Part shown: in pieces, positions 10,538 through 64,000 of the stretch
How the letters are laid out: every line of letters starts with the position of its first letter
How positions within the stretch are numbered: position 1 is the first letter of the stretch
Assembly: GCA_964187785.1 (NCBI GenBank)
Contig: OZ076409.1
Coordinates: 44,456,001-44,520,000 of the forward strand
DNA length: 64,000 nucleotides
Direction: 5' to 3'
From: Amphiscolops sp. MND2022
Lineage: Eukaryota
Notes under the pieces: generated by a model
What the model saw: only the letters and a program-made list of their open reading frames with translations
Told to the model about the DNA's origin: nothing
Databases searched by the model: none
Made by a program: the position numbers and the translations under genes

Positions 10538-10620
10538 CTCGGCTGCTGACTGCTTGGCTCCATGTCAACTGGCTAGGCTGTGATCGTCGAGGTGGAGTTG
10601 GTCGTCGTTGTATGTCATTT

Positions 10621-12299: not shown

Positions 12300-12578
12300 C
12301 GTTCGAAGAAATTTTTAAAATACAGCCTATTTTTTATAACATTTATATCATTGCAGCTTAAAATGACTTTTCTACCGGTCGACATGGATAGTGGCTGGTA
12401 TGAGTAGGTTGTTGGTTGTTTCTTTTTGTTAGTGGTCTACTGGGATAGTGGCGAGGCATGTAAATCCACTAGGTGACTAGGTGAGCTAGGTACTGGGTAA
12501 CTAGGTAAAATTTGACTAGTTGACTGGGTAATTTATTTTTAAAAACTGGGTAAATCTTGTTATTTTTAAGAGTGCAAA

Positions 12579-13499
12579 ATGGCAGATGTCAGGAAACGAA
12601 GTGACGTTGAAAACAATGACAATTCCAACCAGCCAGAGTTCCAGGAGTATGTACCAAGCGACAATACAGATTCTGATGAATCGTATCGAGCCCCACCAGC
12701 GAACACTTCGCCAAAGAGAGATCTCCTTGGAAGGGTGACAGTACAACCTTTTTGGAATACATCCGTTCAAGAAGTCACCCAGTGCCCGTACAACATCAAT
12801 GGGGACACAATCTTAATGTTGGACAAACTAATTAGGACATATGATCAATGTCGATGGGGAAAGCAGTCGGCAACGACAATGAAAAAATTAAAAATCATTT
12901 TCTGGAAATACATTTTACCAAAATTCGGTAGCCTGTTCTGTTCCAATTTATCGTGCTCCTATCGAACAGAATTCAATTGGATTAACACGTCGATGCTTGG
13001 GCGAAAATTTTACTGTCGCGAGTGTTAGAAAAAGGTGGAGACCAAAAAATGCAATGCCAGACGATATGTTGGAAAGACCGCTAACAATATCATAATTGCT
13101 TATTACGGCGAGCACGATTGCGATCCAAGCAATGTGAAGCCCAAAAAAGCCCTTTCTCAAAACGACCACGACTATTTGTCGACTCAGTTTGCTGACAATT
13201 CGCAATTGACACCCGCCGTTGCTCTTTCAAAGTTAATCGGTCGAACAGTGCTGTCAGAAGACTTCGGTGCTGCTGTCGCTCAAGCAGAATCAGTGGAAAG
13301 AGCAAACATCAGGCGCATAAAATCCCAATCACGCACTCATAGTACTCTAAACAATGTAAGAGAACTGAAAGTAAAACTGGATTTCGAGGACAACTGTTTG
13401 ATTCACTATATAGCTGATGGCAGCGTTGTGACAAGCTCCACGCTGCGTGTTCAATTGAAAATATGCCAGCCCGACAGTTTGGTTTCTGGATGTTTTTAG
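12579..13499 (+). pseudogene. MULE transposase N-terminal region with a GCM/WRKY-like Zn-binding domain
   Basis: ORFs 12579-13028 and 13035-13499 are in the same frame, separated by one TAG. Pattern 'RWG...GSLFCSNLSC...CREC...CNARR...YYGEHDC'. Truncated by a HINE insertion at ~13494; no DDE core seen. Confidence 0.65.
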
Positions 13500-14047: not shown

Positions 14048-14752
14048 CTAAAAAACGTAGTTCAGCGTGTGGCTTCTAAATTCGTCACGCGTGTTGAGGT
14101 TGGGCTTCTTTCTACGAATGAGTACAGCTTCAAGTGCCAATAGGGTTTTGGGATGCTGTTCGGTTGCCAGTATTCGCACGTCTTCCAAGCTCAAATTCAA
14201 TCCACAATTGGAGAAGTGTTGGCCCACTGGCGTGCTTTTGTTCTTGTGTTCACGTATTCGGACGTCTAAATGTCGGATGGTTTGTCCAACATAGGTTCCA
14301 CAGCAAGCAGAACAACTTATTTCGTATACAAGATGACTCCGAATAGGTTTAGGAACAATTGCTTTCAGGCTGGGCAAGTTCGACATCAATTTCGTTGTGG
14401 TAAAGTAGACATTGAGTGATGCCAATGGTTCTAGGGTCTTCTTCAGATTCTTGGCAAAGGTAATGGATGACGGCCCATTGTACATTAACTTTAAACCGAT
14501 GTTCAAATCAGCCTTCGGACGATTCGGCTTCACAGGAAGACCACTCTTCACCGGTGCCAAAATGTTGTCCAAGGTGTGACTGGTAATTTTTTCAATAAAA
14601 CCGGTGGGATATTGATTGTCACGTAAAATCTTCTGTGCTTTCTTCAGTCCATCGTGAAATCTAGACCACGAAGAGCATGTATTGAAAATGCGATGTACGA
14701 AACCTGATACGATGCCAGACTTGAAAATGTTTTTCAATTTATAAGGTTCCAA
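14048..14752 (-). mobile_element. Penelope-like element 3' fragment (RT C-terminus plus GIY-YIG endonuclease)
   Basis: 234-aa open frame with 'LRDNQYP', 'LVYEISCSACCGTYVGQTIRHLDVRIREH' and 'LEAVLIRRKKPNLN', the typical PLE GIY-YIG layout. Confidence 0.9.
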
Positions 14753-15110
14753 GTTTCGTCTAAAACCAGATCTAGTTTTCGTCTAAAACCATAGTTTTAA
14801 TCTATGTCATCGTTAATTGTCTCAATTTACAGTTTTCTGACTATTAGTTTTGCTAATTGTTTCAAAATTTAATTTACCTAGTCGATTTTCCTGAAAAACC
14901 TAGTAAATTTTCCACCCAGTAACGATTTATTAATTAAATTACACCCAGTTAATTTTTACCTAGTCAACTAGTTGATTTCTCACACTCGATAGTGGCTGGG
15001 GTTCCCTACTTTCGTTGCAGACCACGGGTGTGTGTCTTCTCCCCCAACATGATGATACACGTGGAGCTTGATTGATGACGAAGATCCATGATATCTGATA
15101 GAGGAAAAAA

Positions 15111-19100: not shown

Positions 19101-21251
19101 GTAAGTAATACCCTACTATAGCATTCGACTCTTTGTTTCAGTGGTGGAGGGTTCTCATCCAGCATAGGACGAAAAATTTCCCATGTCATTTTTATTTAAC
19201 CACCATATGAATTTTTCGATTTTTTCTTTTTCAGTCTAGGAAAAGCTTTGGACGATCCAAAAGTCTCCTTATGACATTCTCTTACTTTGCATAATTTTCG
19301 ATTTTTTGCTTACAAATTTGCGTTTTTTGTTTTCACTTAATGAAAAGGTTTTGTCAGTAACTTTCCTCGAACATATTTAAAAGGCTTTGTTATTTACGAG
19401 CCTTAAGCAGAATTAAACATAATGAACAGCTTTGAGCCGATCATTGCTGGATCATTTGATCACAAATATGGTTTTGTTGCTTGCTGAAAGGAAATCCGAA
19501 AGGGCGCTGGCTTAAAAAACGACCATCTATTTATTCGGCGTTCGCTTGGACAAAATTGATCAATAACCGGGTTTTTGTTTAGCTACGTGGAAAGAATGAA
19601 GCCGGGCCAACGTGAAATTTATTACCTTTGCGCGCCCAGCCGTGAGTTAGCTGAAACATCGCCATACATGGAGACTATTTCTGCGTCCGAAAAAGACTAC
19701 GAAGTGTTGTATGCTCTAAGGCCTTTTGATGACATCACTCTCAGCCAAAGTTTCGAGTTCAAGGGCAACCGCATAATAAGCGTGGAAAGTGCAAAGTTCG
19801 CTAAAGCTGATTCTAAATCGAAGCAAGATTCTGGTAAGAGAAACTTGGAATTGCTTTTGAACCCCATATGACAACCATTTAATTTATTCCTCAAGCTGCC
19901 TCAAGAATTTATTTATTCCTCAAGAATAAATTCCTCAAGCTGCCGACGACATTTCAATTCTCGTGCGAGTGGTAATTATACATTCGTACGCTGACGTCAT
20001 TGAGATGAAGCGAGCGAATGTTCGTAATTATGCTTTCGTGCGCCGATTTATTGAGATGAAGCGAATGAGTGTCAATTATACCTTCGCGGAGAGCTTCGTC
20101 TGCATTCAAATACGAATGCGAAATTTCGTCTACGCTTAGTAGTCATATTTGCTTTAGTCCGAGATTTAAAGGCGGTATAAACTGGTACAGTGATTATTTG
20201 CGCGCTAAATAAGGAATAAAGAGGAGTGTATTGGTATTCCAGATATGATTCTATTATTAATGAGAATAATTTATAATTAAGTTTAAAGCAGAAATGATAG
20301 TGTGCTCCGGAGGGGCCTATTTTTAATAACGGGCATTTATTGAAACCCGTTTCTAAACTTGATATCCACCTTAAAATCTACGTGTATTCACCCCATAGAA
20401 TCTTGAAAATTGATTCAATGTTTGGAGTACCGTGGAAGCCGCTTATATGGGACGCCTCGGGTATCCTTGTCTACTATATCCGTTGTCTCATATCAGTAGT
20501 ACAATTGACCGGGCCAGGGGACCGAAATATGCGTGCCAATTAAGCGTTGTCTCTTATACGCGTGTTCCATTTAAGCGGCTTACACTATTACTTACAATCT
20601 AACAAATTTAAATGAATATTCTTGATGTGAAAAAGGCCTATGATAAATTAAAATTCGACGATGTACATCATCTGTTTCTCAATTACTTGTACTGTTTTAT
20701 TCGCCACAGCAAAAAGTGAACAAAAATCAAATTTCTTCCTTTAGTTAAACTGAATAATCAATTTCATGACAAAAATTGCTACCTCTTCTGACATGAATAC
20801 AAGCGTTATGATAAATGAAGTTTTCGTTACTGTTTTAGAATCTTCCGATCAGCAAGACGAAGAAAAATCATCGGCCGAACTCGTGTCTCATTTCCAACAA
20901 GTATTATCTGGTTTAGTGCACGAGGTGAAAGTATCCAATGTCGACTTCAAAGCCCCCGCCATCATTCGCAATTTCGACATGAGCATGTCAAGACATATGC
21001 TTCTCACGGCGCTCTCTGATAAAACGGAAGAAGAGAAGCTGAAATTTTTGCATGCTGAGTTGGAGTTGAATCCTTTTCACCCAGTCGTGAAGAAAGTGAT
21101 TGAGCTGAAAGAAAGTGACGCAGAATTGAGTAAAATTCTGGCGAGACAGATTTTGGACAATTCTTTGGTCGCAGCTGGTCTTACCACTGATTCCAGACTG
21201 TTAATGAAACGTTTAGACTCCTTGTTGACTAAAGTTGCTGAAAAATTGTAA
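16119..21251 (+). CDS. TRAP1: Heat shock protein 75 kDa, mitochondrial (TRAP1, HSP90 family), 8 exons, ~730 aa
   Basis: Phase-consistent GT-AG exons: 16119-16166, 16202-16361, 16544-16719, 17022-17372, 17757-18123, 18609-19035, 19583-19833, 20839-21251. Motifs [73 protein letters not shown]. Arg/Ser-rich presequence; no charged linker and no MEEVD/KDEL tail. Confidence 0.95.
16741..16918. mobile_element. Tc1/mariner-pogo type MITE in TRAP1 intron 3
   Basis: TA|cagtaaaccctcgatta...taatcgagggtttactg|TA: TIRs with a TA TSD. Confidence 0.9.
19925..20319 (+). repeat. Dispersed ~400-bp repeat ending in a GC hairpin (gccccggaggggc), possibly Helitron/Helentron-derived
   Basis: Similar copies at ~28650-29070 and ~35855-36282; partial copies at ~27100-27260 and ~31105-31331. 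Confidence 0.65.
20430..20587. mobile_element. pogo/Tigger-like MITE in TRAP1 intron 7
   Basis: Imperfect TIRs gtggaagccgcttatatgg / ccatttaagcggcttacac; TA at the left boundary. Confidence 0.65.
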
Positions 21252-30115: not shown

Positions 30116-30960
30116 TTTTTTAGGAGTCGGAAAAAATTTTCGACTACTTATGCAATCGTGCTGTTTTTTTTTCTCCCGACCTTTTCATGAAAATTTCAAA
30201 TTTCTCAAAAACTGTCCATACGATTTTCACGAAATTTTGCACAGTCATTCTACACCCAAAGGGGCCCCTGCGTGTGCAGAGGCATCAAAATCGTATGGCC
30301 TGGATGTGAGAAACATAGCCAAAATTAGCCCAAAAGTGGCCAAAAAACAGCCATTTTTCGACTTTTTTTGATTTTCTCAAAAACTGTCCATACGATTCAA
30401 ACGAAATTTTCTACAGTTATTCTACACCATATTAGAGTCCTATATGTGCAATGGCATCAAAATCGTATGGCTGGGATGTGAGAAACATAGCCAAAAATGG
30501 CCAAAAACAGCCATTTTTCGACTTTTTTCGATTTTCTCAAAAACTGTCCATACGATTCGAATGAAATTTTCTACAGTTATTCTACACCATATTAGAGTCC
30601 TATATGTGCAGTGGCATCGAAATCGTATGGCTGGGATGTGAGAAACATAGCCAAAATTAGCCCAAAAATGGCCAAAAAACAGTCATTTTTCGATTTTTTT
30701 CGATTTTCTCAAAAACTGTCCATACGATTCGAACGAAATTTTCTACAGTCATTCTACACCATATTATGGTCCTTTATGTGCAATTTCATTAAATTCGTAT
30801 GGCTGAGATGTGAGAAACATAGCCAAATTTAGCCCCAAAATGGCCAAAAAACAGTCATTTTTCGATTTTTTCACAAACTGTTCATACGATTCGAACGAAA
30901 GCGAGTCAGAAGGAAAAAGACTTAAGCCGACTCCTTTACCGCATATGCGGCTCTGGTTTT
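30116..30960 (+). mobile_element. HINE/DINE-like element, family 2, with an internal ~160-175-bp tandem array
   Basis: 5' tttttaggagtcgg..cgactact; 3' ccgactcct plus hairpin ccgcatatgcgg; about 4 tandem units. Inverted full copy at 41679-42456; fragments at ~34043 and 35205-35850. Confidence 0.8.
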
Positions 30961-33451: not shown

Positions 33452-33979
33452 TTATTTCTGAGATAGAACAGACGTTACAGAAGTTTGTAATGATCGGGCA
33501 GTTTTCCGCAGTGAAGTGAGGCCCTTAAGTTCTCTGCTTACGCGATTGACAAATTGGTCGGTAACGACTGGTGCATCCCTGATCCGAATAATAACCTGCC
33601 TGTCAGTAATTGTCCCGTGGTCTCTGAGCTTTTCTCTTAGTCGGTACACTGTTCTGCGATCAACTTCTTTACCGAAGCGACGTCGAAACTCGTTCTCTGT
33701 AGGCTTAACGCTTCCAGTCTTGTAAAAACTTTCTAACAGAAAGACGTTTTCTGCATGAGAAAGCATTGTGCAAAGTGGTGTTTTATCACGGCGGTTTTTG
33801 AATCGGAAGTAAAATTCTTTCACATGTTGTGAAACGAGGTAACGTTAGTAATCGTTTCATGTTAACACAAACGCTCTTCTATTATCTTAGCTCGACACAT
33901 GCAAAAGTTCGTATTCCTAGCTCCACGTCAAGGGAAGTTATTGCAATTCAAAAGTGTGACAACTAAAAAAAACACTTTG
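33452..33979 (-). mobile_element. Tc1/mariner-superfamily transposon 5' end with an N-terminal HTH (DUF4817-like)
   Basis: TA|CAAAGTG terminus at 33981-33973. ORF 'MLSHAENVFLLESFYKTGS...EFRRRFG...RRTVYRLREKLRDHGTITD...TSLRKTARSL'; catalytic domain missing. Confidence 0.8.
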
Positions 33980-41678: not shown

Positions 41679-42456
41679 AAACCAGAGCCGCATATGCGGT
41701 AAAGGAGTCGGCTTAGGTCTTTTTCCTTCTGACTCGCTCCAATCCCAGTAATACAAATTTATTGAAATTGCACACATAGACCATACTATGGTGTAGAAAA
41801 TGACTGTAGAAATTTTCGTTCGAATCGTAGGACAGTTTTTGCAAAAATACAAAAAAGACGAAAAATGGCTGTTTTTTGGCCATTTTTGGGTTAATTTTGG
41901 CTATGTTTCTCACATCCCAGCAATACGAATTTGATTAAATTACACACAAAGGACCATTGTATAGTGTAGAAGGACTGTACAAAATTTCGTTCGAATCGTA
42001 TGGATATTTTTTGCGAAAATCAAAAAAAGTCGAAAACGGCTGTTTTTTGGCCATTTTTGGGTTAATTTTGGCTATGTTTCTCACATCCCAGCCATACGAA
42101 TTTAATGAAATTGCAGAGAAAGGACCATAATATGGTGTAGAATGACTGTAAAAAATTTCGTTCGAATCGTACGGACAGTTTTTGAGAAAATCGAAAAAAA
42201 AATTGAAAAATGACTGTTTTTTGGCCATTTTTGGGCTAATTTTGGCTATGTTTCTCATATCCCAGCCATACGATTTTGATGCCTTTGCACACGCAGGGGC
42301 CCCTTTGGGTGTAGAATGACTGTGCAAAATTTCGTGAAAATCGAATGGACAGTTTTTGAGAAATTTGAAATTTTCATGAAAAGGTTGGGAGAAGAAAAAC
42401 AAAAAAAAACAACACGATTGCATAAGTAGTCGAAAATTTTTTCCGACTCCTAAAAA
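41679..42456 (-). mobile_element. HINE/DINE-like element, family 2, with tandem array
   Basis: Reverse-complement copy of 30116-30960 with both termini. Confidence 0.8.
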
Positions 42457-48410: not shown

Positions 48411-50771
48411 TGTTACGACTATTTACCGGTGTTGTTTTAGAGCTAGTCGCAGTGTGAACTTTGACGGGTGTGGACGTCCTCGTTATGGAGACGTTCTCTG
48501 GTTCAGAATCAGAGTCTCGAACATCTGAGCGGACAGTTTGTTTTTTGTTCAAAGGTGCTATTAGTTTAAGCATTTCCTTTTGGTTTTTTGCAAGTATTTT
48601 AGTTAAATCAGACATGATGTCTTACCTTAGAGATGTTTTTATCTCAACTAGACTCTCAGGCTCTACTCTAGGGACTTTGCTAGAACTAGCTACGAGGTTT
48701 TCCGACGGAGAGTTCTCGGCTAAAGAAACTTCTAAATCTCCAGAAACTAATTCAGCTACAGCGTTCCTCTTCTGACTTCTAGTTGTCATTTTGGATTGAA
48801 AATTCAAGGTCTTCGGCAAAATTGAATTCTTCGAATATTCGAAGAAATATTGATTTTCTGTTTTGAAAAGAACAGTTTGAACAGCAAAATATCACAAAGA
48901 CTAACTGACTTTACATGTAAATTCTACATATTTATACCCTTTCAGCATCATTTGTTTCTCACCTAAAATTTCCTAGGTATCGCAAAAATCGGGTTTGTTC
49001 AGCAAGAAAAGCTTATAATTCAAGTTATTTCAGCCCGGCATCAAAAAAATCAGGTATCATAATTCCTAGTTGCGCCGCTATTCCGTAATATTTGTTGAAA
49101 TCATTTTTGTTCAGGCAATTCCATTTCCTGTTTGAGTCTTGAAAATGCGGCAAAATAAAAGTCTAGCTGAAATTTTCATCGACGAATGCACGCTGGCGTG
49201 AACAATTAGTCACTTCCCAAACTAGGAAATTAATGTTCGAAGCAAAAGTATGACACTCAAAAATATTAAGGGAACTGAAACGGAATAAAGAAATTCGGAA
49301 ATGGCAAATATTTAAATGCTAGAAAAGAACAAACGATGCCAATACGGTATCAACACATGAGTGTTTGTTATGATAGCAACAGTGGTATATTGTGGCAACA
49401 GTGGTACAAGTTAACAAAGGAACGTAAACAGTTATAACGGAAACATTCCGCTGGTATAATATATCATTTGTCACTGACAAACTCATGGATAGCACAAAAT
49501 ATCAGCCAATAGCTAACTAGAAAATAGTAGAAAATGGTGCAAGCACCAAACAACGACTGTTTAGAAATAGTAGAAATGGTGGAAAAGCGTCAACAGTAAA
49601 TCATGATTACGGTAGTTACACAAATTTGGAAGATCACGATAGTATATTTTAGATATGAGTTGCCCTTACGTTGCATATTCGTTCTCAAAAATGAACGTTG
49701 TGTAGTAAGGAAAACCCTTCAACTAGAAAAACTTTGCTAAATAATTTGATTACAACGTAAGTTAACCGTGTTCTTCCCTTGACCTGTTTTCATGTTAATA
49801 CTTCAATTTGCCTTACAGTACAGTTCATTTTGTATGAAAATTTATCCTAAAACATTATCTAAATGCGTCGAATCGAAAAAGGATGATCAATGTTAAATGT
49901 TCATTCAATTTAGTGCTTTATAGTCATGATTTCTCATATTGCTCCGTAAGTGCTACGTACGTATTAAGATCAGCTATAGCTGAACAGCGGAATACAATTT
50001 TACAATCCGCTCCGTAGATGTTCCGTACGTATTAAGATTAGGTATAGCTAGGCAGCGGCGATAGCAGGCGGAGCGAGAACGGAGAGCGTAGGTGAATTCA
50101 TTCTTCTTTTCTCAGTCAATTGGCGTTGCTAGGGGCAACCAAGCATGGCTTTACCGACTTGAGCTCAAATAATTTAGCTGAGGAGCAACGCTATTGGTCC
50201 GTAAAAACAGAAATACTGGTTGCTAGTTTTGTCGAGTGACGCTGTCATAACGTTGTAAACCTTTGCTTAAAACTACTTGACTGTGGTATTAAGTGGATAT
50301 TTGACAACTATTTTAATACTGGAATCCAATTCCACTATACTTTTGTATGTTCTTTCATTTAGATTGTATGAACTCCGTTAGGCTCTCGGGGTTAAATATT
50401 TTTCTCAATGTTTTCATTTTAGTGTGGAGCAGAAAGAAATGATCTCATTTTAGAAAATGATTTTGTTTTAGTATTTAGATTTGTATGGAAACTTCAGAAG
50501 TCTTAACCGGAAATGAAAAGTGGCGTTGTACGTGAAAACTTTTGACCGGAAACTTTAGTTAGTTTAGAATCATTTCTGAAAATATTCCGTAACGCTTACG
50601 TTGGATTCTGTGTACGGAAAATTATCTGCGATTATTTAGCTGTGCTGTAAGTAAAATTTGATTAGTTTAGCAAAGGTTAAAAGTGTTTACTGTGTCCTTG
50701 TCCGCATCCTCTGCCGAATCCCGGTATGCCAGAGCAGCAAGTGAAATTACGACCGAGAGCGGGTCGTGACA
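48411..50771 (-). repeat. 3' LTR (2361 bp)
   Basis: 48411-49545 matches 62325-64000 apart from a MITE (9 mismatches in the first 190 bp). Inverted TG...CA termini; a PPT directly precedes 50771. The upper boundary is inferred from the terminus and PPT only. Confidence 0.8.
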
Positions 50772-51416
50772 GGGCCCCTCTCCTGGCTAAATAAGTTGGT
50801 AGTCCGTGACCGTGCGGGATTTCTTTTGTCACTATCACTGAGGGTCGGCTGACATAGTTCCTTATCTGGTGGGGGCTACGTCCTCTCCCCGCCGTCATGT
50901 ATGCAATTTTATTTTCGTCCTCTTCTAGCTCCCGAATCATTTTTTCGAAATGTTCCTGAGCTGCGGGGGAACACAATTCTTCGTGGTACTCTTGCGGAGT
51001 CTTTTTCCTTGGCTCATTTAAGTCGTTAAGAGGGCTGCGTTTCTTATTCCCCGACGTGCAAGCGTTAAGTTTTGTGAATTTATCAGAGCCGTTGGCATTG
51101 CGGGTGACTCAAGTTCCTCGTAGTAGTCGTCGGAATCAGATTCCACGTTGCTTCTTGGTTCGCGGATGATGAGAGGCAGATTAAAGGTCACTTTCGTGTT
51201 CTTTTTCTTCTTGGGGGTCAACTTTGCTCTTTTCGGGGAGCATACGAATTCGTCTGTAGACTCTAGCTCTGCGTCGCTGCCTCGGTAGACTTCTGTGGAT
51301 GAGTCGCTGATATTCAGCGTTCTAATTAGGTTCAACGGCAGCGTTTTTATGGGAGTGCTAGTCCTTGTGTTCTCTTCGTCAGAGGAGATGTCGATTACTA
51401 GAGCGTATCCGTCCAT
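50677..51416 (-). pseudogene. Gypsy accessory sense ORF (~245 aa after one frameshift) overlapping the PPT and U3
   Basis: ORFs 51416-51018 and 50976-50677; 'LVIDISSDEE' and 'PKRAKLTPKKKK'; low-complexity acidic/basic composition. Confidence 0.55.
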
Positions 51417-52901
51417 CTTTCGTTTAATGACTGCGAGTTTTGTTGAAAGATAAAATAAGATTTTGATTTTCTTGTTGTAAGCTGGTCAAGCTGAGGTTTT
51501 GAACGACAAATAACCGTTCCACTTTCTCTCCTGTTTATGTTTTCTTCGAATTCTATTGGTCTGTTTTCCCGCTTTCGTTCCGGTCCGTCCTGAGCTTTTA
51601 ATGCGACGAACTTACGACTCTTCTGTGATTGGTCAATTAATTGATCTAAGGAAAAAATTCTGTTCTAGTTTTGTTTCCCTTCAGCTTCATCGTAATGATG
51701 TCATTAGTTTCTTTCGAAAGGAATACAGCTACTAAGCGTAATATCCGAAATGGCTTTTAGAAGATTTCTTCAAAGCTTCTTGGTGAACTAGTAATTCACC
51801 TGTAGGGTTTTTGGAAACGTTTTGTTCCGTCAGTGCCATAATGGTCTCTTATTGGAGTTGAAGAAATGGATAATTTGTTTTTCCTAAGTAAGATGAAAAC
51901 GATGCTAAAGCTTTGCATTGTTCTTTTTCCGGGATAGTCTCGTTGGTATACTTTTCTTCGTCTTCTTTACTGTCCTTTTCCTTTTTAGATTTCACTGAAG
52001 ATATTTGCTACTGATCTTGATGGATGATGAAGAGGTTGTTCCGCCTACTGTCACAGCTACTGGTTTCGTCGGTGGGAACGAAACTAATTTCTGCTTCTCC
52101 GATGATGACATGGTTTATACGGAGGAAGAAAATATTGAAGATGCTTCAGGTTGGTAAAATCTTTCTGACTTTTATAGGCAATAGGACTATTGTTATTTTG
52201 GTGATCAGCCTTTTATAGTCTTGACCGTAACTCTGACGCGTCTGAATCCAGATCTTGATTTTCAGTACCTCAACCTGGCACTTCCACTGCTGTTACTTCC
52301 GTAGCTGCAACGGTAACTAATACTTCTGGAACTGTAACGGGAACTAGTACTTCTGGGGCTGTTGTGTTGTCTTCAGTTCCACTATTCTTGCCTCTAATTC
52401 TTCTTGTTTCGTTAACGCTGCGTTGATTTCTGTGTTGTCTGTGCCTGAAGTTCCACTGGCTGCAATCCCTCTTCAGACCGAGACAGAATCGACAACTTTC
52501 GATACTGCTGAAGATGCTGATAGTGAGTCTCAAGAAGGTGAGACTGATCCCCCGGCAACAAAAAATCCGGTTGGTATTCTGTCAATTGCCCCATTGTTGT
52601 TCATGGTAGAGTAAAAAAGGGCGTGCATGGATATGTTTTTTGTAGTTCTAGATCTAAGGGGTAGTGTGACCCGGAAGGTTGCCGTTAATTTTGCAACGCC
52701 GACAAAACGTGCACGGAAAACTGTTCCGGCACCTCCACCTCCTCTTCCCCCTTTGACACATTGTCTGAGTGGTTGGCAAAGTTAATTGAATTGCACTTTA
52801 TTTCTGTTGTCTTTCCGTGGATCTGCGGGGTAGGGTGATGATTATACCACGAGTGTTTTTTTTGCTCTTTGGTTAATTTTATTGTTCTTGTGTAGGTCAG
52901 G

Positions 52902-55900
52902 ATGATGAACAGCTCTACACTACCGGGGAGGTGACGTGGAGTCCCCAAATTGTGATGCAGTGGGACCGACAGCTTGCGGAGGAGATGAAAGAGAGGACCT
53001 CACTGGCAATTCAGAGCTGTTAGTATCAGTTGTTGATGTCTTACCGCAGGGTTTGCTTTCCTTGATTTACGTCGTTGGGCGTACCGTGCTCCTTCCGCAA
53101 TTTAACTGTATTTCCTTTCCCTAACACTGTGTATGTGTGTTGTAGAATTTCAAGAACTCAACGAGAAGGTGGAGCAGCGTCTGGCTAAGCGCCCAGTGAA
53201 AAAGTATAGCAGTCGCAATGAGCTACATCGTAGTATGTTGGACCGCCATCCTGCTTTCGCCGACTTTGTGACTGGGGCCAAGGACGGGAAAGGAACGCAT
53301 TTCCACTGTCGTGTCTGTGATCATGATGTGGTCATGAAAGCACATGGTTCCGGCGAGTTTAGTCGACATTTCCGGTCTGACGCACATTGGTTTAAGGACG
53401 TCACCTGCCGCGTTCATATGGGCCTGCAAGTTCTGAACAGATTGATGGAACCTATGGAGTTATCAGACAGTCAACTTGCTAATTGTAGGTCACGGCCTTT
53501 TGTGGACTTGAGCGGGGAGTACCTGTTTCCAGAAGATCTTTTGCCGAAGCATTCTAGGGCGGGGACAAAGGTGCACTTTATGACGTTGGTGTCCTGTTTT
53601 TCTTCGGAACGGTGGTGACTTCGATTCCCTGCGCCGTCTGTGGGGACATTTATCTGCGACTTTGTGTGGCCAGGAGCCTGGATTTCCTCTACGATGGAGT
53701 TGTTCAGAGACTGTTGTAAGTCGGGTATTTTCTGCTTATTCTTCGTTTTTTTGTCTTTGAGGGGGTGGGAGAAAAAGAAAAATAATAATTGAATAGATGG
53801 TGGGCGCTGTGGTTGTCTGTTTCTTTTGATGTTCTTCTGTGTTTGTGTTTTTTAGTCCTTCCTATGCCAGGGGTTAGCGCCGCGTGTCCTTCGGCTCATG
53901 GTCAATGATGTCAATTCCCTCAAGGAGTACGGGATACAATCCGAGAAAGTGGGCAATGAGGAACGATGTTATGTTCATTGTTGGGAAGGGACGAGTCTCA
54001 AGAAGATCTGTGTCAGCAGTCAGACTTTGGATCAGAAAGTGCCAGATGCCGAACTTGTTCCGTTAGTCCAAGTGGTAACCTGTTTCGAGGGAGAGCAGTT
54101 GCCTGTGTGAGTTCTTGGCGCGAGTCCGTCCCTTATTCGTGTGCTGGATGATAATCGAGCTGATGGTCGTAGATTTATGATGTGGCAGTTGTTTAGCGAG
54201 GAGGTGTTCCTTCAGTGTTTTCGGCAGTCTCATCAGGACGTATTTGGAATGTTGAAGGTGACGACGGCCCTCGAATACGTAATTCATTGTCTGAAAGGGT
54301 CTCTTTACGAGGACTGGGCCGAAGATAAGCATCTTTTGCGTACATGTATCCGGAAGGGTTCTGTTGTATTCAGTGAACTTCGGAATGTCCTGAGCGATGT
54401 AATTGAACTTTGGCCATCGATTCGTCCATACGTCCGTTATACGGGCCATCCGCATTTTAAGAGCACTGTTGATTGGGTAAGCACCTTCTTTTTACGTATT
54501 GTTTTCGCTTGGGGTTGGGTTTCGGGTTTCTTCTGGGTACGGTAGTTATTCCTCATTATTGTATCGTGTGATTGTTGTATGGTAGTTGTATTGTTTAGCT
54601 GAGAGGCACCGACTTTGAACTAATTCCCGATAATTTGATCGTTTTATCGGTTTGGTTTCCTGCGGCTGCCTCTTGACACTCGTAAGTATAATCCTTTCTG
54701 TTATGTGTCCGTGATTTTGACTGACGACTGTGTTTGATTGATTGGAAATTCTATCAGTTGGGAATTTGTCCTCTTTTGGTTTGCTTGGTTTTGTTTATAT
54801 TCTTCTTTCCTTTTCTTTGGCTGTATTTTCATGTTTCGTTTTAGACTACATCAACTTCGAAAATGTTCGACAATGCCGTACGGATTACGCTTTCCATGGC
54901 TATGGTGAGGTGTGTAACTTCATCTATTGTTTTTTGATGAGGACCCGCAAGTTATCCGATTTACCGGGCATCCATGAATGGGAGAGTTATATGGATGTTT
55001 CAAAACTTTCTTCTTTTGGTGTCATTGCTGTGGAGGACTTTCTAATGGACTGCGATTTCGGACGTGAGTTGTCTGCCATTAAGACGAGTGAAATGCGGGA
55101 GTTTCGCGTTAAATGTCGGGAGTGCCTCGATCGATTTGTGTTCTTGGTTCTCGAAAATATGACTGTAACTTCTGGCATTTCGCGAGGGCTGTACAGTTTT
55201 TGTCCTGACATCATGCTGGAGGGCGATGATCAGCATGTGTTTGAAGTATTTGATTCACTTTGTGAGCTGTTTGGAACATGCAACGTATTGTCCTCAGATG
55301 ATTTGAAGGCCGCCGCTGTCGAGTACAAAAGGTATGTCGTGGAGAAACGGAGGCATCACAAAGATTCTACTTATGCTGCGAATGAGATCCGTGATGTGGT
55401 GCAGTTTCTATTGCGGGATTTTAGCTTCCAGTCCCGTACGCATGTGTTCCGATTGTTCAAGATTTGTTGCCTCATTGTTGGAACACGGGATAGCAATCCT
55501 CCTGTAGTGACTATTGATCTAAGAGGCAGTGCACTTGACCAGGCAATGGTTCAGGATTGTATTCTAATTGTGCAATCTCACGTCCTTGGCCCGAGTTTTA
55601 GTCCTCAAATATTCTTTTCTGGATCTTTGCTCCTTGCTGTTCAAAATGCTATTACAAATTCAGGAGGGTTCGTTGTTGGTGCTGGAGTTGATATATGGGA
55701 AGGCCTCCGGCTCAGTGATGTATCTGCTTTCGTTGGCCGTTATAAATCCTTGTAAAGGAGTTATTTGGCAGAGCGGCGCAAGAGTTGTCAGACCTATTTT
55801 ATAGAGTGCAAACCGGAGTGCTCGCGACAGTCAAATTTCCAGTGCGGCTGAGACAGGGAGTAGTACAAGTTCCGTAGTCAGTTCGAAGAAGTCGAAAGTG

Positions 55901-56113
55901 TCTAATCCCAAATCAATATCGACGAGGGATGTGTACGTTGCTGTTTCGTCCAGTAAGAGTATGGGCATGTCGTGTGGATCATCTAAGAAGGACGGCGTAG
56001 GAAGTACGAAATCCGCTGTAGGAGTTGATTGTTTGTCAGATGGAGGAACACAAGACCCTTCTAAAAAGAAAAAAAAACCCGCCCAGGGAGAAGGATCCCA
56101 GTGTCGCCCATAG
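52902..56113 (+). pseudogene. Antisense spliced cargo gene: BED-like C2H2 finger plus hAT-transposase-like body lacking catalytic motifs
   Basis: GT-AG exons ~52896-53050, 53146-53715, 53856-54476, 54599-54681, 54845-56113. Motifs 'FHCRVCDHDV...GEFSRHFRSDAH', 'GLAPRVLRLMVNDVNSLKEYGIQSE', 'LWPSIRPY', 'FRLFKICCLI'. Several stops and frameshifts. Confidence 0.7.
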
Positions 56114-56311
56114 ATTGAAGAAAGGTGCCAATAATTAGACTGTGGCTTCTGACTCTTTGATGTTATATTAATTTTATACTTATGGTTTGATGATTTGTTG
56201 TATTTTCTTTTTCTTGGGATATCGTCAGTATGTGTAGTGTTTTGTAGTTTAGAATGTTCCAAAATTTGACGTAGCCACTCCGGTTCGGTTTGGTATACTA
56301 ATCATTTTTAT

Positions 56312-59300
56312 CTAGGCCTGAGTTGAACGTAGATCGTCCGTAGTAACTGAGTCGAGCATTCTGAAGTCAGGATTTACGTTAGGTCGTGGATTAGGTCGTA
56401 AGTTATATCTTCCCACTTTTCTAGGATTATATCCAACAACAATAGGCGGCAGTTCAGGAGTTTTGGGGGGGCTTTGTATCGGCGGTGGGGTCAGAATATA
56501 TGGCTTATCGCTGACATCTAGGTTGAATGACGTAACGTTGTCGGAGGATGTTTTATCCCCTTCAGTAATTTCATTTGTGGCTGTTTGAACCACGTCATTT
56601 TCCGTTGTAGTTTCGCTTGTGGCTGTTTTAACCACGTCATTTTCCGCAGTAAATTCGTCGTTTTCTGTTGTGTCTGTGATTTCTGTAACTGTAGCTTCTT
56701 CGAGGACGTTTTCCGTGGTATTTCCGAACAGAACTTCTCCGAATTTGATTTCCCAAGCTTGCGCCTACCAATCATTGTGGGTTGTTTTAACCTCTGGATC
56801 TTCCCTTCTGACTGTTACGTCAGGTACTCGCTGATTGGGCGCATATAGCCTTAGGCGAATTCTAAGGAGGGTTTGAGTATACCGAGTTCCTGGGCGACGT
56901 ACGACGTAGTTGTTGTTCGAGAGTACTTTGACAACTATGTAGGGACCAGTCCAAATGCTATCTTTGAGAGCGAATTTCATCGATTGGTTGTCTGCCTTCG
57001 GATTAAGAACGTAGCAGTAGTCGTTGACTTTGAGCGGCGTAGCCGTTGCTTTCTTGTCATAGTACTGTTTGTATTTGAGGTAAGACTGCATTAGATTCTC
57101 ATTGGCGGCTTGGTGTATTTCGGCTGTTTGTTTCTGTAGTTGATCCGTTTTTTCTTCGTTGTTATCTTTTTCCCAGTCAGGTTTCAATCCGAGTTTTATG
57201 TCCAGAATGTTGTACGGAATGCGTCCGTGAAATACTGTTGTAGGTTCGCAGCCTAGGTTTTCATGGTAGCTCGTATTATAGGTCATGACTGCAATCTGGA
57301 GGTATTTGTGCCACATGGAACGTCGTTCTCCCGTAGATATTTTTGTGAAGTCTTCATTGAGGCATGTGTTCGTTCTAGTATATCGATCGTTTGGGCATGT
57401 TTCGTTGATGCGTGGCTTATCCCTATGTCAAGCGTTTGAGCTATTTGGTTGACGACCTCCGATCTGAACTGTGATCCTTTATCCGTTAGTATGACGGTTG
57501 GTAGGTAGCAATGCCTTGTCATGACATCAATTATACTTCGTGCCACTGTTTTTGCTGTCATTTCCTGAGTCGGGTATGCGAAAAGGTAGCGAGGGAAGAC
57601 GTCCATCATCGTTATGATGTGTTGGTATCCCTTTGAGGAAGGTAGATTCGGTAAGATGTCCACTTCTAGGCAGTCTTCTGGTCCCATTGTGAATTCAGTG
57701 TTGCTTAGCATTTTGGGACGTATCTGTCTCGTGTCAATTCTTTTGTTGGCAATGCAATCTGGACAACTGGTTACCCAAGCTCTGATTTTGCGTGCAAGAC
57801 CCGGGAAGTAGTATTTCGTTCTGCATTCCTGAATCATTTTGGTAATTCCTGGGTGTTTGATTGTTTTTCCATGCATGGTGGACAAGAGTTCTGGGACTAG
57901 GTGTTTTGGGATTATCATTTGGTTGTGTGTAACTGATCCGTCTTCTCCGTAGTATTTCCGCATTAAAACTCCATCTTTCATTATGATTCTTTCTTGGTGA
58001 CGTAATAGGTTTCGTCCTCTTGGTTCAGTTTTGAGAAGATGTTTGTCATATTCTTCGTGTGAGATCCGTTGTTTCAGTGCTTTATGGAGAGGATATGCAT
58101 CTTGCTCATTTCTGATTCGTGCATTTTCCTTGATTGCGCCGAACGAGTAGACTGCGGAGCTGTGAGGTATCTTGATGACTTCAGTTACTTTCGTTGATAG
58201 GTCCTTTTCGTGTTCGTCGGTAGCACGTTGCTTGCTGAGTGCTTTCCTTGCGAATATTTCTTGTTCGGATTCTTCTTCTTCATCTGGTAGGAAGAAAAGT
58301 TGTTCGTCATCCGCTACATCTGATGACTGTAGATTGACCTCAATTGGTGACGTTAATATGTCGTCTCGTAGTTTAAGTTGTACCATCTCTTTTCTTGGTG
58401 TGAGTTCAAGTCTTGAGAGAAAGTCGGCTGCTGTGTTCTGGGAGCCCGCAACGTGCATGATCCGGAATTCGAACTGAAGTACGTAGTCGCAGGCATTCCA
58501 CAGTGCGGGTGGTGTTGTTTTCGTCTGAATGAATCTGGTTACTGAGCGGTTGTTTGTCAAGATCAGTGTCGGAATTGTTGTCTCCCATAGTATGTGGCTG
58601 TACTCAAGAAAGGCGTGGTAGATTGCCTGGAATTTCTTGCAGTAGATAGACATTTTCAGTTGTGCAGGTGAGAAAACTCGTGATCCGGACGCTACTGGTG
58701 CGAAATGTTTCCGTTTGGAGAGTAGTTTGCGTTCATCAATCTCTTCAATCATGAGGGCGTAACCAGATGCACGGAAGCTTGCATCCGTCATTAGAACGTA
58801 CTGTTTTCCTGATAAGGGCTGTCTGAGTGCATGCAAGTCCACAGGCTTCCGCTAAGCTAGCGTTGATTTCTTTAAAGTTATCAACGAGTTTCTCTGAGAT
58901 TCTGATTTTGGAGTCTGCTTTTAGAAGTTCATACATACCAATGAGTTTTTCTGACAATCGCGGTATGTAATTGCGATAGTAGTTGACAAAACCAATATAT
59001 TTTTGAACCTGCCTTTAGGACTTCGAGAAGCGGACTTTGGAGAGGAATATTTTGACCTTTTGATCTTGCGGAGCTACTCCGTCAGGGGTGATGTTTCGTC
59101 CAAGAAATTCGATTTGGGTTACTCCAAAATGACATTTTTTGATGGATAGTTTTAATCCTGCCTCTATAATACACTTGAAGACTGCCCTGATATTCTTTAT
59201 GAGCTGTTCCGTTGTACTTGCGGCAATTCCAATGTCACCTACATATTGTGCACATTGGTCCGTTTTGATGACTGAATCCAGATACTTACGCACAAAGCGC

Positions 59301-60600
59301 GAAAAGGCTGATATAGCTCTGCTTAGTCCTTGTGCCAGGCGACGGTAGTCGAACGTCCTACTTGCAAAATTGAAAGCAAGTAATTCTACTGACCTTTGGT
59401 CTGCCATTTGGAGGCAGTGGTATGCCAGGGAGCGGTCGAGCTTGCAGAACAGTTTCTTCCCCGCAAGGTGTTGTGCCGCGTCTGAGAGGGTGCTGACAGG
59501 GTGGTTGTTGTTGATGTAGTCATCGGCAATGAGTGCGTTGATTTTGCGCTGATCCACCAATAGTCTCAGCTTGCCGTTGGGTTTACGTTGTGCAAATATG
59601 GGACTGGCATATTTGAAGAAGGGAAGTGTCGTGATGATTCCGTATCTGTGCATGAGGGCTAGTTCCACTGTCAGATCTTCTTTGAGGTTGATGGGGACGG
59701 GTAGGTTTTGTGTGTAGACTGGTTTGTCGTCCTATGGGGTTGGGCTGACTTGGGTGTTCTGGAGTTGGGAACCAGATTTTCTCTTCTTTATCTTCGGGCC
59801 GTGCTACTTACATTAATGCATTAATATACATGACCACATCGTCGTGTTCGGTAAGGAGGTTCAGGGCGGCTATGTCGACTGGACGGATCATTTTCGTTTC
59901 CTCGGGTTTCAGAATTTGTAGCTCGGCTATTTTCGTGTCAGTTGCTATTGTGTATGGGAAATCCGTGGTGTTGGCGATTTTAATTGGTACCTTTTTATCT
60001 CTGGCTGTGGTGATTGCTGGGGCTACTATTATTTTCGCGCATTCATCAAATTCAAATTGCGGTAAGGGTTGTATTGTACCAGTCATTGGATGTTCGGTAC
60101 TTACGGGGATAGATGCGTAGATGATTCGGTTAGAGTGCGCAAGAATTGTGTGCTGGGCTTCGGTCTTTTTTGTGATTGGGTTTGGGATTGCACTTTTGCC
60201 TTTCATCGATGAGTGTCATCGTGATTTGGATCTTGGGGAAGTCAATGGTTCCTTGTGCAGTGTCGAGGATTGCGGCATGCTTCCGTAGAAATGCTAATCC
60301 GAATATAGGGAATGATGTTTGATTCATGATTATGAATGTTTCTTCGAAGGTGTAGTCCCCGATTTTAAAACGTAAGGTGTACGTGGCGAGTGGTTGTTCT
60401 AATTCAGCGTTAGCGTACTGTACTTTGAAAGGGGGTGAAGGTGCTTTAATAACAATACATTGACTAGCGTTCTGTCGGAGTTTTTCGACGTCCCTTTCGC
60501 TAATAGCGTTAACGTAGGCACCTGAGTCGACTAAGGCGTCGATTTTGACAGTGTTGATTTCGACTGGTAGAAAAAGCTATCATTTTTTCTTCTTGAGGGC
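56312..60600 (-). pseudogene. Gypsy pol (protease, dUTPase-like region, RT, RNase H, integrase), frameshifted
   Basis: Protease LVDSGA (~60530); RT 'YASPIFAQRKPNGKLRLLVD..YVGDI' (59015-59668); RNase H 'MTDAS' (58842-57283 ORF); integrase H-H-C-C, 'VDI', 'TDKG', 'LER'; GPY motif 'WTGPY'. Confidence 0.92.
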
Positions 60601-61259
60601 AATGGCGGACATTTACGGAATGTAGTCGTCATTTTTGTCATGCTGGATGAATTCTTTGATGGCGTCTAAATCTTCAGGCAGTTTTGAAGGGCATTCCGTG
60701 ATTTGTCCGTCGTCGTTTGCCATTGCTCTGGCGGGCACGGTTTTTGGGGGTGTTACTGTAGGATCAGTGTTCTCTCGTTGTTCTCTTTCTTGATGTGCCC
60801 ATATTGTTTTATCCTCAATGCAGATGATGTTCTCTGCATCTATCGGTGTGGACGTAATGGTGACGGGCGCTGTGGGAGATGGTGTTGTCCTTTTCAGGAT
60901 CGGTGACGGTGGAAATGGTTAGTTTGTAATCTCAGTGGACTGGGCTTGAGGTTTTGAAACTTGGATTTTGAAAGATAGTTTATTTGTGTCATAGATGGTT
61001 GGTTCATCCCAGGGGTCACATCTATAGTCTCTGTCATATATGTAACTTCGTTCCGTTTTTGATTCTGGCAGTGGTCTTTTGAGTGTCGCATAGTTATCGG
61101 GTGACTCCGTTATCCATTGGGGTAGTGGTGTTGGATCTTCGGGGTGTTTGGCGTTATGTCTAAGTATCATGCCTACGTTCCAGCGCTGTTGCAAGTCCTG
61201 TGTTGATTCTTCATTGCATTCTGTCATAAGCTATTCTTCGTATCTATTTGGGGGGTCTT

Positions 61260-62703
61260 CTATTGTGTACGCCCTCGCGTCAACTTTTTCCCCAAATCGT
61301 AGGCGCGGCGACTTTTGTTTTTTGGCTGAGAGGACGTAGTGGGTACGGGTTGTTTGTTGATCTTGTTGGTTGGGATGGTGAATTCTCGTTTCTTTTTGCG
61401 GGGGTCGTTTGCCGCATTGGCTCCGTCCCAGCAATTTTCTGTTTTATGCTTTTTTTCCGCAAGTGTCACATTTGGGTTTTGGTGCCTCAGTCTGTTTGGG
61501 TTCAGTGTTGCTTGTTTTTGTTGCATAGTACCTGTCTTTGCGGAGGCGACGACATTGTGCCTTGTAGTGGCTATATTTGCCACAGTGAAAACAGTTGCCT
61601 CGTTGTGATTGTTCTTTCTTGTCTTCCATCACTACGGCGTCCACTTAAGAGGGACTAGGGTTGTTTCGTCGGGCGCACCTAGTCCGTTTAGTCGCATCTC
61701 GCGTTCAAGATGCAGCACTATATCGTTGTATGGCTTATCTTCTAGGTAGGCTCTATTGAGGGTCTTTTTGACGTGGTCCGGCATTTTAGCGTAAATGGCC
61801 TTGTCAATGAATTTTTGTGCCTCTGAGCCAAACACTTCTTTTGCGGTTTTTTGCAGAATGTCAAGAAATTCATGAAGTTTCTGCTTAGTTTCTGCTTAGT
61901 TTCTTGCTTTGGCTGCAGATTGGAAGTCGCCAAAACGACGTTTGAAAGCCGTTATGACTTCTTCTAAATCATCTTCTTTGGTATCTTCAAGATTGCAGTA
62001 CGCTTGTAGCGTGTTTCCTCGTAGCAGTGAGTGGAATCAATTTTTTTTCTGGACTTCCGTGAGATTGGGGTATATTTTAATATTGTTTCGGAATAGGTCC
62101 TCAAAAAGTTCAAAACTTTTCGGACTTACCATCGAAGACTGGAAGCGAAGCGGTGAGTGCTTTCGGCATCGGAAGTTGATTGGTAGATGGGAATGTCTGC
62201 GGTTGTGGCGCGAACAGTATCTTCGATGTAGAAGGACGGTCTCTAGTTGGTTCGCTAGGCGCTCGTTGTTGTTTTGGCCTCTTTGTGGGTTGATTGGTGG
62301 AGTCATTGAGGACTCCTGTCACCATGTTACGACAGTTTACCGGTGTTGTTTTCGAGCTAGTCGCAGTGTGAACTTTGACGGGTGTGGACGTCCTCGTTAT
62401 GGAGATGTTCTCTGGTTCAGAATCAGAGTCTTGAACATCTGAGCGGACAGTTTGTTTTTTATTCAAAGATGCTATTAGTTTAAGCATTTCTTTTTGGTTT
62501 TCTGCAAGTATTTTAGTTAAATCAGACATGATTTCTTTCCTTAGAAATGTTTTTATCTCAACTAGACTCTCAGGCTCTACTCTAGGGACTTTGCTAGAAC
62601 TAGCTACGAGGTTTTCCGACGGAGAGTTCTCGGCTAAAGAAACTTCTAAATCTTCAGGAACTAATTCAGCTACAGCTTTCCTCTTCTGACTTCTAGTTGT
62701 CAT
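61260..62703 (-). pseudogene. Gypsy gag with CCHC knuckles, starting inside the 5' LTR
   Basis: MTTRSQKRKA at 62703; 'LPVFDGKSEKFELFEDLF'; CFHCGKYSHYKAQC and CDTCGK.H...C; frameshifts. Confidence 0.85.
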
Positions 62704-64000
62704 TTTGGATTGAAAACTCAAGGTCTTCGGCAAAATCGAATTCTTTGAAGAAATATTGATTTTCTGTTTTGAAAAGAACAGTTTGAACTGCAAAATATCA
62801 CAAAGACTAACTGATTTTACATGTAAATTCTACATATTTATACCCTTTCAGCATCATTTGTTCGGATCACGTAAATAACTTCTAAATAAATAAGTTCTAA
62901 AATTATATTAGTAAATAACTTCTAAATAAATAAGTTCTAAAATTATATTAGTAAATAACTTCTAAAATGCATTTGCGTCTGGTAACTTCTGAAATCATTC
63001 TAGTAAAGATTGCTATTCATTCTTCCGAAAAAAAATTAACCGTTCCATTATTCCGAAAATAAACTTACCGTTCTATTATTCCGAAAACTGTTATTTGAAA
63101 AGATAAGCATATTTGTTGTATGGCTCGGTCGCTTCGCTCCCTTCGCCAAGTAGCAACATTGAGGCATGGCCATATGGCACGTCGCTCCGCTTCGCTTCGC
63201 TCCTGCATTTAGGGCACTAGGGGTATGTGAACATAGCTAACGACGTTATAGAAATAATTACGTCAAAATAGCTGTTTGGAAGTTATTTACTAGATGCCAT
63301 TGCAATTTAGAAGTTATTTACTAAAATAATTTTAGAACTTATTTATTTAGAAGTTGTTTACTATATTAATTAGAAGTTATTTATTTAGAAGTTATTTACT
63401 TCCCCCATTTGTTCCTCACCTAAAAATTCCTAGGTATCACAAAAATCGGGTTTGTTCAGCAAGAAAAGCTTATAATTCAAATTATTTCAGCCCGGCATCA
63501 TAAAATCAGGTATCATAAATCCTAGTTGCGCCGCTATTCCGTAATATTTGTTGAAATCATTTTTGTTCAGGCAATTCCATTTCCTGTTTGAGTCTTAAAA
63601 TTGCGGCAAAATAAAAGTCTAGCTGAAATTTTCAATGACGAATGCACGCTGGCGTGAACAATTAGTTACTTCCCAAACTAGAAAATTAATGTTCGAAGCA
63701 AAAGTATGACACTCAAAAATATTAACGGAACTGAAACGAAATAAAGAAATTCGGAAATGGCAAATATTTAAATGCTAGAAAAGAACAAACGATGCCAATG
63801 CGGTATCAACACATGAGTGTTTGTTATGATAGCAACTGTGGTATATTGTGGCAACAGTGGTACAAATTAACAAAGGAACGTAAACAGTTATAACGGAAAC
63901 ATTCCGCTGGTATAATATAACATTTGTCACTGACAAATTCATGGATAGCACAAAATATCAGCCAATAGCTAACTAGAAAATAGAAGAAAATGGTGCAAGC
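62325..64000 (-). repeat. 5' LTR (partial)
   Basis: Direct repeat of 48411-49545; adjacent to the PBS. Confidence 0.88.
62864..63405. mobile_element. Foldback MITE (taacttctaaa arms) inserted in the 5' LTR
   Basis: 9-bp TSD catttgttc (62855-62863 / 63406-63414); empty site in the other LTR at ~48949-48957; GG...CC ends. Confidence 0.93.

Follow-up and report, generated by a model that had tools for sequence, protein, structure and literature searches.

An antisense gene with a predicted hAT transposase fold, conserved between pol and the 3' long terminal repeat of a Ty3/Gypsy-type retrotransposon clade in Amphiscolops sp.

Plant Ty3/Gypsy retrotransposons of the Tat lineage, namely Retand, Grande and RIRE2, carry antisense open reading frames (aORFs). 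The available parts of two reviews describe those of Retand and Grande as proposed nuclear DNA-binding regulators, an own promoter having been shown for gene23 of Grande (PMC11963269; PMC7264820). According to the same parts of these reviews, the plant aORFs have no similarity to other transposable elements (TEs), an account that the available portion of PMC8220671 repeats. Animal long terminal repeat (LTR) retrotransposons with accessory open reading frames (ORFs) are also described in the accessible text of the respective papers: ORF3 in the rotifer elements Vesta and Juno (PMC5408684), CERV in Cer1 (PMC10309623) and, as further cases, the env of Oikopleura Tor (PMC4402516) and planarian Burro (PMC6431247). 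Where the antisense ORFs found between pol and the 3' LTR come from, and what they do, is an open question. Here we analysed a stretch of 64,000 nucleotides from Amphiscolops sp. MND2022 (assembly GCA_964187785.1, contig OZ076409.1, positions 44,456,001 to 44,520,000 of the forward strand), hereafter the window, which contains on its minus strand a decayed copy of a Ty3/Gypsy-type LTR retrotransposon of about 16 kb. Between pol and the polypurine tract (PPT) of this element lies an antisense gene whose origin appears to be traceable to a class II transposase. The reading that we favour, a captured hAT transposase that has been disarmed and acts as the element's own DNA-binding regulator, stands as a whole at about an even chance.

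An earlier note on this DNA, made from the sequence alone, had proposed that the roughly 5.5 kb between integrase and the PPT, in which no separate terminal inverted repeats (TIRs) had been noticed, is a cargo that moves with the element as one unit. For the examination of this proposal, two samples of genomic loci were taken, both of them top matches and not a census. With a 1-kb cargo probe, 300 candidates were obtained, and the 40 that were scored yielded 43 matches; 30 loci were fetched, 5 matches lay inside those, 7 were left out and 1 was the window itself. From the integrase side, 40 of 2567 candidates were scored and 38 new loci were fetched. Integrase adjoined the cargo in all 30 cargo-picked loci, and a 3' LTR followed the cargo in 27 of the 29 loci of sufficient length. 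Both ends and the PPT were located by script in 13/29 loci, with a perfect 5-bp target-site duplication (TSD) in 11 of these 13, and independent insertions bore different TSD sequences. The copies measured at both ends are 15.6–16.8 kb long. The LTR pairs of the copies are 87% to 99% identical, and the insertions are therefore spread over a long time.

By DNA comparison, most integrase-picked loci contained little cargo. By protein comparison, homologues of exons E and G of the antisense gene and the sense ORF of the cargo (ORF S) were present in 36 of the 38 loci and exon D in 35, with the order and strand of the parts unchanged. Among the 29 integrase-picked loci where it could be measured, the pol-to-PPT distance was 5.1–5.7 kb in 26; the other three, which are rearranged, had 3.7, 4.2 and 6.3 kb. 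A direct integrase-to-PPT junction was seen in none of the 38 loci of this sample, and none of the 29 distances was short. Cargo apart from pol was found in none of the 33 loci examined from the cargo side, these being the top-scoring candidates only. No TIRs were found in the integrase-to-PPT interval, the longest inverted match of which is 12 bp (E 1.5). The 5.5-kb stretch belongs to the element as a fixed component, and the clade is large in the 1.07-Gb Amphiscolops genome, with first-look candidates (not copy numbers) amounting to 2567 for integrase and 12120 for the protein of the sister family B described below. One copy, L030 (G000:C1365), contains several tandem repeats of about 870 bp from the exon G region.

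Purifying selection acts on the cargo as it does on pol. The dN/dS ratios were calculated pairwise against one reference copy, so that the pairs share it, and 7–33 saturated loci per part were excluded. Where the synonymous divergence (dS) exceeded 0.1, the median dN/dS was 0.07–0.15 for exon D, 0.10–0.14 for exon E, 0.13–0.20 for exon G and 0.15–0.21 for ORF S; thus, the cargo spans 0.07–0.21 against 0.10–0.16 for pol. The co-occurrence of cargo and integrase in both search directions, the differing TSDs and this pol-like selection all bear out the proposal of a single mobile unit. The earlier observation that cargo and pol carry similarly sparse stops and frameshifts also stood.

Judged from the DNA, the cargo comprises two predicted genes, the antisense gene and ORF S, which lie head to head across a conserved non-coding spacer. 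The antisense gene was modelled on the plus strand as seven phase-compatible exons with about 1,040 codons; its presence had thus been recognised correctly, with an exon count of five instead of seven. Exon A (52020–52149) encodes an acidic sequence with the start codon (ATG in 23 of 24 aligned copies), and the ratio of nonsynonymous to synonymous polymorphism (pN/pS) is 0.38 in its frame versus 0.80–1.26 in the other frames. An alternative 121-residue frame overlapping exon A was rejected as the wrong frame (dN/dS about 1–1.8). The low-complexity exon B (52266–52569) has the weakest support: it is stop-free in 21/24 copies with pN/pS 0.60, another frame reaching 0.57 but containing stops, and it is broken in the window copy. 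Exon C (52896–53018) is stop-free in 22/24 copies (pN/pS 0.28). Exon D (53146–53715; frameshifted in the window copy) encodes a putative BED-like C2H2 zinc finger and a helical region, and exon E (53856–54476; one premature stop in the window copy) the predicted RNase H-like strands and the start of an insertion domain. The small exon F (54599–54681; frameshifted in the window copy) keeps its phase in 21/24 copies with pN/pS 0.13. Exon G (54845–56138) would supply the rest of the hAT-like fold and a Ser-rich basic tail, and has a premature stop near 55755 in the window copy. The exon phases are mutually compatible, and all six are kept in 6/24 copies; in the remaining 18, indels are scattered or the alignment slips where exon D begins. 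For exons A, C, D, E, F and G, pN/pS in the predicted frame is 0.13–0.38, compared with 0.80–2.6 in other frames.

A search with exon D gave 244 relatives, one of them with 890 residues in a single frame, and 28 such single-frame proteins were followed. One relative, P0174, is encoded at 100% identity in the same genome. Two loci of this sister family (family B, the family of the window element being family A) are complete elements with 2.05-kb LTRs that are 99.8–99.9% identical, 5-bp TSDs in both, the same primer-binding site (PBS) as in family A, and a reverse transcriptase (RT) 73% identical to that of the window. The family-B homologue also lies antisense between integrase and the PPT, with its core exons fused. 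A sense ORF running into the LTR is present there too, and its comparison with the family-A ORF S revealed no similarity. Exons E and G are 24% and 29% identical to P0174, respectively. On the profile of the single-frame family, exons D–G are placed end to end: D ends at position 210 and E starts at 211, and the E, F and G junctions meet within about 2 positions (by extrapolation). Exon F itself matched with an E of 0.33 only, yet it was placed in the gap left for it. This comparison showed the predicted antisense exons to be collinear end to end with their single-frame homologue.

In a tree of the exon D region (61 rows), the uninterrupted forms make up one branch (99/90) nested among forms that enter intron-like sequence at an identical residue. 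It should be noted that the tree has a midpoint root only and that P0184, P0188 and P0208 were counted as uninterrupted, since their sequence clearly runs on; the automatic rule takes them as intron-bearing, which gives three changes and not one. This suggests a single intron loss in family B, and the intron-bearing and intron-less forms together provide a natural example of intron loss from a gene reverse-transcribed from the opposite strand. Another relative, P0146, is at best 31–35% identical to anything scored in the Amphiscolops genome, and the gene family therefore probably extends to other organisms. Longer proteins searched with exon G gave no homologue, and no relative was found in JGI metagenomes.

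The structure predicted for P0174 (predicted local distance difference test (pLDDT) score 75) was compared with solved structures. The best match was Hermes (Z 13.1, root-mean-square deviation 5.2, 401 aligned residues), the next chain having Z 6.6, and Hermes structures filled the Foldseek top ten (E 5e-5 to 1.4e-3). Among viral proteins, a hAT-domain protein was the one strong match (E 1.4e-5). A language-model search, which provides leads only, placed hAT-derived families (ZBED5/FAM200/DUF4371/DUF659 clusters) at 0.81–0.84, under three unnamed clusters. In the model, a helical insertion domain interrupts an RNase H-like core. We conclude that the antisense protein very probably folds like a hAT DNA transposase and carries a BED-like zinc finger in its N-terminal part. 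The finger ligands CxxC and HxxxxxH are kept in both families, all four in 55–60 of 61 loci; the finger has no Pfam BED match, and searches of PDB sequences with the products of the antisense gene gave no match. A search for DUF4371 in the genome found no match, but its control likewise matched nowhere. A RabGAP-TBC lead for exon G alone (0.91) was rejected, as it was missing from the full-length fold search and its recognition was low.

The catalytic triad of Hermes consists of D180, D248 and E572. The position taken to correspond to the second aspartate is acidic in only 1/63 family-A loci and 2/28 family-B rows, and the position of the first aspartate in 0/28 family-B rows. A CxxH motif after strand 5 was looked for in family B, where no conserved C or H was found at P0174 residues 322–330 in 28 rows. 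Kat1 and Hermes depend on both this motif and the triad, according to the available part of the source (PMC4763223). Since the acidic triad and CxxH appear not to be conserved, the antisense protein is probably unable to cut DNA, that is, disarmed.

The sense partner, ORF S (50677–51419, minus strand), encodes about 250–290 Ser/Pro-rich residues and runs through the PPT into the U3 region of the LTR by 95 nt; it is frameshifted in the window copy and has an ATG in 54 of 60 copies. The product was predicted to be mostly disordered (pLDDT 49) and gave no structural alignment. In other copies ORF S has 0.13–0.45 stops per 100 residues versus 0.6–5.0 for six other sense frames, three of which aligned in one integrase-picked locus only. 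These six frames are not kept open and were rejected, so that the two or three sense ORFs of the earlier note come down to one conserved ORF (51419–50677). A spliced 5' exon for ORF S was rejected as well, its acceptor being kept in 1/60 copies. By a hydropathy scan only, no membrane segment and no env-like layout was found, as had been noted before: the maximum over 19 residues is 0.54 in ORF S and 0.89–1.15 in the antisense exons.

The spacer between the divergent genes (51420–52019) has conserved blocks without codon periodicity and contains CCAAT- and CRE-like words, which make it a candidate bidirectional internal promoter. DNA conservation in the region is highest in a non-coding block (52150–52290) within and just past the intron between exons A and B, lying between two modules. 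Its median identity is 84–90% in 29 copies with exons only about 55–65% identical. A palindromic 8-mer of this block, present in 29/38 loci and in both family-B loci, is a candidate binding site; it occurs once in the window (52235) and at analogous spots in family B (L109:5094; L111:5100). An internal TATA box in the block was rejected, being missing in 39/60 copies, and no RNA structure was indicated there (z -0.34). With this block and the preserved zinc finger, function could be tested directly.

Parts of the element have separate histories. Over 59 loci, the identity of integrase to the window was uncorrelated with that of exon E (rho 0.05), while exons E and G were correlated (rho 0.87); as the loci had been picked on integrase or cargo themselves, this contrast is inflated. 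Mantel tests gave rho 0.21–0.33 between the antisense exons and integrase versus 0.76–0.78 among the exons. At least seven exon-E alleles with less than 80% identity are found on near-identical integrases, and in a set of 32 integrase-picked loci the grouping into seven exon-E types runs across that by ORF S type. By these comparisons, the subfamilies appear to swap the antisense gene, ORF S and pol as separate modules.

The following course of events is proposed. A hAT element would have entered the 3' region of an ancestral Gypsy element in reverse orientation, lost its ends (the TIRs) and its catalysis, and yet been retained by Gypsy. On the genomic RNA, antisense introns would be unseen by the spliceosome and survive reverse transcription; six introns may thus persist in a retroelement because their antisense placement hides them. 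The antisense gene would be transcribed from the spacer between the two genes, and its protein would enter the nucleus via the basic tail. There, the zinc finger and the transposase scaffold would let it bind the DNA of the element that encodes it, and it would promote or protect the transcription of that element, possibly with its acidic N-terminus, by trans-activation or anti-silencing. A nuclear DNA-binding regulator of the element itself is the function that best fits the capture of a hAT, the loss of TIRs and catalysis and the retention of the DNA-binding parts, and we propose it with some reserve. As a speculation, the introns of family B may have been lost through use of the spliced antisense mRNA, a molecule of minus-strand polarity, as a template during plus-strand synthesis. 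Held with slightly less confidence than the regulator role is the wider proposal that the whole LTR clade domesticated a DNA transposase, a catalytically dead hAT protein encoded by a spliced antisense gene, as its sequence-specific DNA-binding regulator or anti-silencing factor with swappable alleles, one branch having lost its core introns by recombination, in plus-strand synthesis, with the spliced mRNA of this gene.

Several points weigh against the reading of a disarmed hAT transposase turned regulator. The DNA binding and the target of the antisense protein are predictions, and its transcription and splicing are predicted from DNA alone. The splice sites were initially chosen among conserved dinucleotides, so that the preservation of all 12 in 21–24 of the 24 aligned copies (versus 35/101 GT/AG in the intron interiors) is partly circular, and the independent support for the exon model is therefore phase and collinearity. 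The fold was predicted for the family-B protein, which is 24–29% identical to the window exons, and not for the window element's own product. Pfam searches with the products of the antisense gene gave no match and no sequence-level link to hAT, and a profile comparison with five resident hAT frames returned the finger only (probability 0.1). The catalytic register was deduced from strand order in the secondary structure and motif spacing, and not from superposition. Finally, an acidic residue is present at the end of strand 1 in 54/65 family-A loci and another near the third site in 56/66 family-A loci and 23/23 family-B rows, apparently two positions apart between families; residual chemistry may therefore persist.

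That chemistry is the core of one alternative, in which the protein is a still-active nuclease or transposase with a rearranged active site that gives the element a second DNA-cutting activity. The whole fold is kept over 401 residues and the acids near the first (family A) and third (both families) sites would suit such an enzyme. However, the second-aspartate position and CxxH are not conserved, the first acid is missing in family B, the motif and triad are needed in Kat1 and Hermes in the portion of the source at hand (PMC4763223), and the element ends are ordinary TG...CA with 5-bp TSDs, all of which makes this quite improbable. Largely refuted is the explanation that the cargo is a nested hAT transposon or a neutral passenger merely amplified with Gypsy: although the product has a predicted hAT fold and nested insertions are common, it is contradicted by the lack of TIRs in the interval, by 0/33 cargo-side loci apart from pol (top-scoring candidates only), by purifying selection across saturated synonymous divergence and by the identical position in two families whose RTs are 73% identical.

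Two further roles are conceivable. As a disarmed transposase, the protein could aid integration, as a tether of cDNA and integrase to chromatin, or export unspliced genomic RNA from the nucleus as CERV does for Cer1. In favour of this, the antisense gene is selected no less strongly than pol, DNA ends are held by transposase scaffolds, and CERV is described, in the accessible part of the source, as a spliced accessory protein on which the export of genomic RNA depends (PMC10309623). Yet the antisense gene is shuffled against integrase (rho 0.05; Mantel 0.21–0.33 versus 0.76–0.78), which makes a tight integrase partnership awkward, and the TSD sequences are varied; we regard such a role as unlikely. 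A shade less credible is a part in counter-defence or interference, in which the protein would be a decoy or a dominant-negative directed against host silencing or competing hATs and diversified as swappable alleles. The at least seven exon-E alleles below 80% identity on near-identical integrases, cross-cutting the ORF S types, agree with this, as do the many hAT elements in the genome (2215 first-look candidates, 150 scored) and the anti-silencing use of captured domains suggested for plant TEs in the available text of PMC5418596. Against it, dN/dS is far below 1 in every bin with dS > 0.1, and there is no sequence likeness to the five resident hAT frames.

The remaining parts of the window element, all on the minus strand, are as follows. 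The 3' LTR (48411–50771, 2361 bp, TG...CA ends) is 94–96.5% identical to the 5' LTR and is preceded by the PPT (50775–50784), an identical motif standing 5' of the 3' LTR in other copies; the PPT at 50784–50775 and the LTR start at 50771 are as first placed, and so is the pol stop (56312–56314). The pol gene (56312–61335) has the Gypsy domain order of protease, RT, RNase H and integrase. In the window copy it contains several stops and frameshifts and, relative to all other copies, a deletion of about 245 bp at 59751. The nearest solved structures to the element RT are the foamy virus and Ty3 RTs. The gag gene (61260–62703), broken in the window copy, starts about 380 nt inside the LTR, so its first ~125 codons are carried by both LTRs (62703–62325 and 48789–48411), likewise in family B. 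The family-B gag matches DUF1759 (1.6e-8) besides Retrotrans_gag; DUF1759 is common in Bel/Pao elements. The PBS (62312–62324) has 13 nt complementary to the 3' end of tRNA-Leu(CAA) plus CCA, and the matching intron-bearing tRNA is arrayed in the same genome. Such tRNA-Leu(CAA)-like genes form a long tandem array at G000:C8:35587800-35643637 with a spacing of about 296 bp, with 884 pattern matches genome-wide. The 5' LTR (62325–64000) extends beyond the window to the equivalent of position 65234, which settles its start, one of the checks that the earlier note had suggested. The TSD, also asked for there, is unreadable in the window copy because this LTR is preceded by another PPT with about 250 bp of sequence from the 3' internal region (L011:1235-1482), followed by unrelated DNA; they are the remnant of a tandem or recombined element. 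The 5' LTR also has a 530-bp insertion (62876–63405) with inverted arms (62901–62985 and 63287–63371), which resembles a miniature inverted-repeat TE and partly matches 12054–12198. Short direct repeats with a palindromic core occur in the LTR at 49920–50060, with multiple matches kept in other copies.

Elsewhere, the window contains a host TRAP1 (mitochondrial Hsp90) gene of several exons (16944–21251, plus strand) and a decayed Copia-type element (7576–11379, minus strand) with short direct repeats at 7576–7754 and 11201–11379. A GIY-YIG frame (14048–14782, minus strand) is probably a Penelope-like remnant. Also seen were a retroelement-like stretch (5547–7252, plus strand), a repeat-like pair of Cys/His-rich frames without Pfam match (12570–13499, plus strand), a repeat-like DUF4817 helix-turn-helix frame (33452–33844, minus strand), and arrays of ~170-bp units at 30165–30900 and 41799–42399, in inverted orientation and about 11 kb apart.

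Compared with known systems, the element is neither env-bearing nor giant, and the cargo is very probably not a nested hAT. We did not find a hAT-derived accessory gene of an LTR element in the literature searched, a search that lay outside Repbase, Dfam, GyDB, most subscription papers and supplements; as TE databases were not part of it, an unpublished annotation of such a gene may exist. As far as the available text on the plant elements goes, the window element resembles Retand and Grande in having a conserved antisense gene between pol and the 3' LTR, a region of 2.9–6.6 kb in Retand, Grande and RIRE2 and of about 5.5 kb here. It differs in the predicted hAT fold, the six introns, the divergent sense partner overlapping the PPT and U3, the module swapping and the lack of TRP28 (PF04195), the domain of plant aORF elements, for which the window products gave no Pfam match. 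Vesta/Juno, Cer1, Tor and Burro, in the accessible parts of their descriptions, likewise have coding capacity beyond gag-pol that is shared or swapped as modules; the additions described there are env-like, an enzyme or a polyprotein, with no transposase-derived antisense gene among them. The internal region of Burro reaches 25 kb, and giant LTR elements are defined in the same partly available source by an internal region of more than 20 kb (PMC6431247). The internal part of the window element is 11.6 kb; thus, the large unit with its own accessory genes stands, while the label "giant" and the size of about 17 kb in the earlier note give way to less than 12 kb internally and 15.6–16.8 kb for whole copies. 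The plant mobile domain, common to Gypsy and MULE elements and host genes and with a suggested anti-silencing use in the available part of PMC5418596, is similarly exchanged between retrotransposons, DNA transposons and hosts; it is no transposase, whereas here the cargo would be a transposase scaffold.

With Hermes-type hAT transposases (PDB 8edg, 4d1q), the antisense protein shares the BED-like finger and an RNase H-like core into which a helical domain is inserted, as far as the model indicates. In contrast to them, its gene is kept by a retrotransposon and not between TIRs, the triad and CxxH are apparently lost, and there is no Pfam hAT match. Domesticated hAT proteins include DAYSLEEPER and proteins of the ZBED/ZNF862 type. 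Unlike these, the gene described here is kept by a retrotransposon and not by the host, so that a hAT-derived antisense gene would mean that domestication took place inside a second mobile element and not in the genome of a host.

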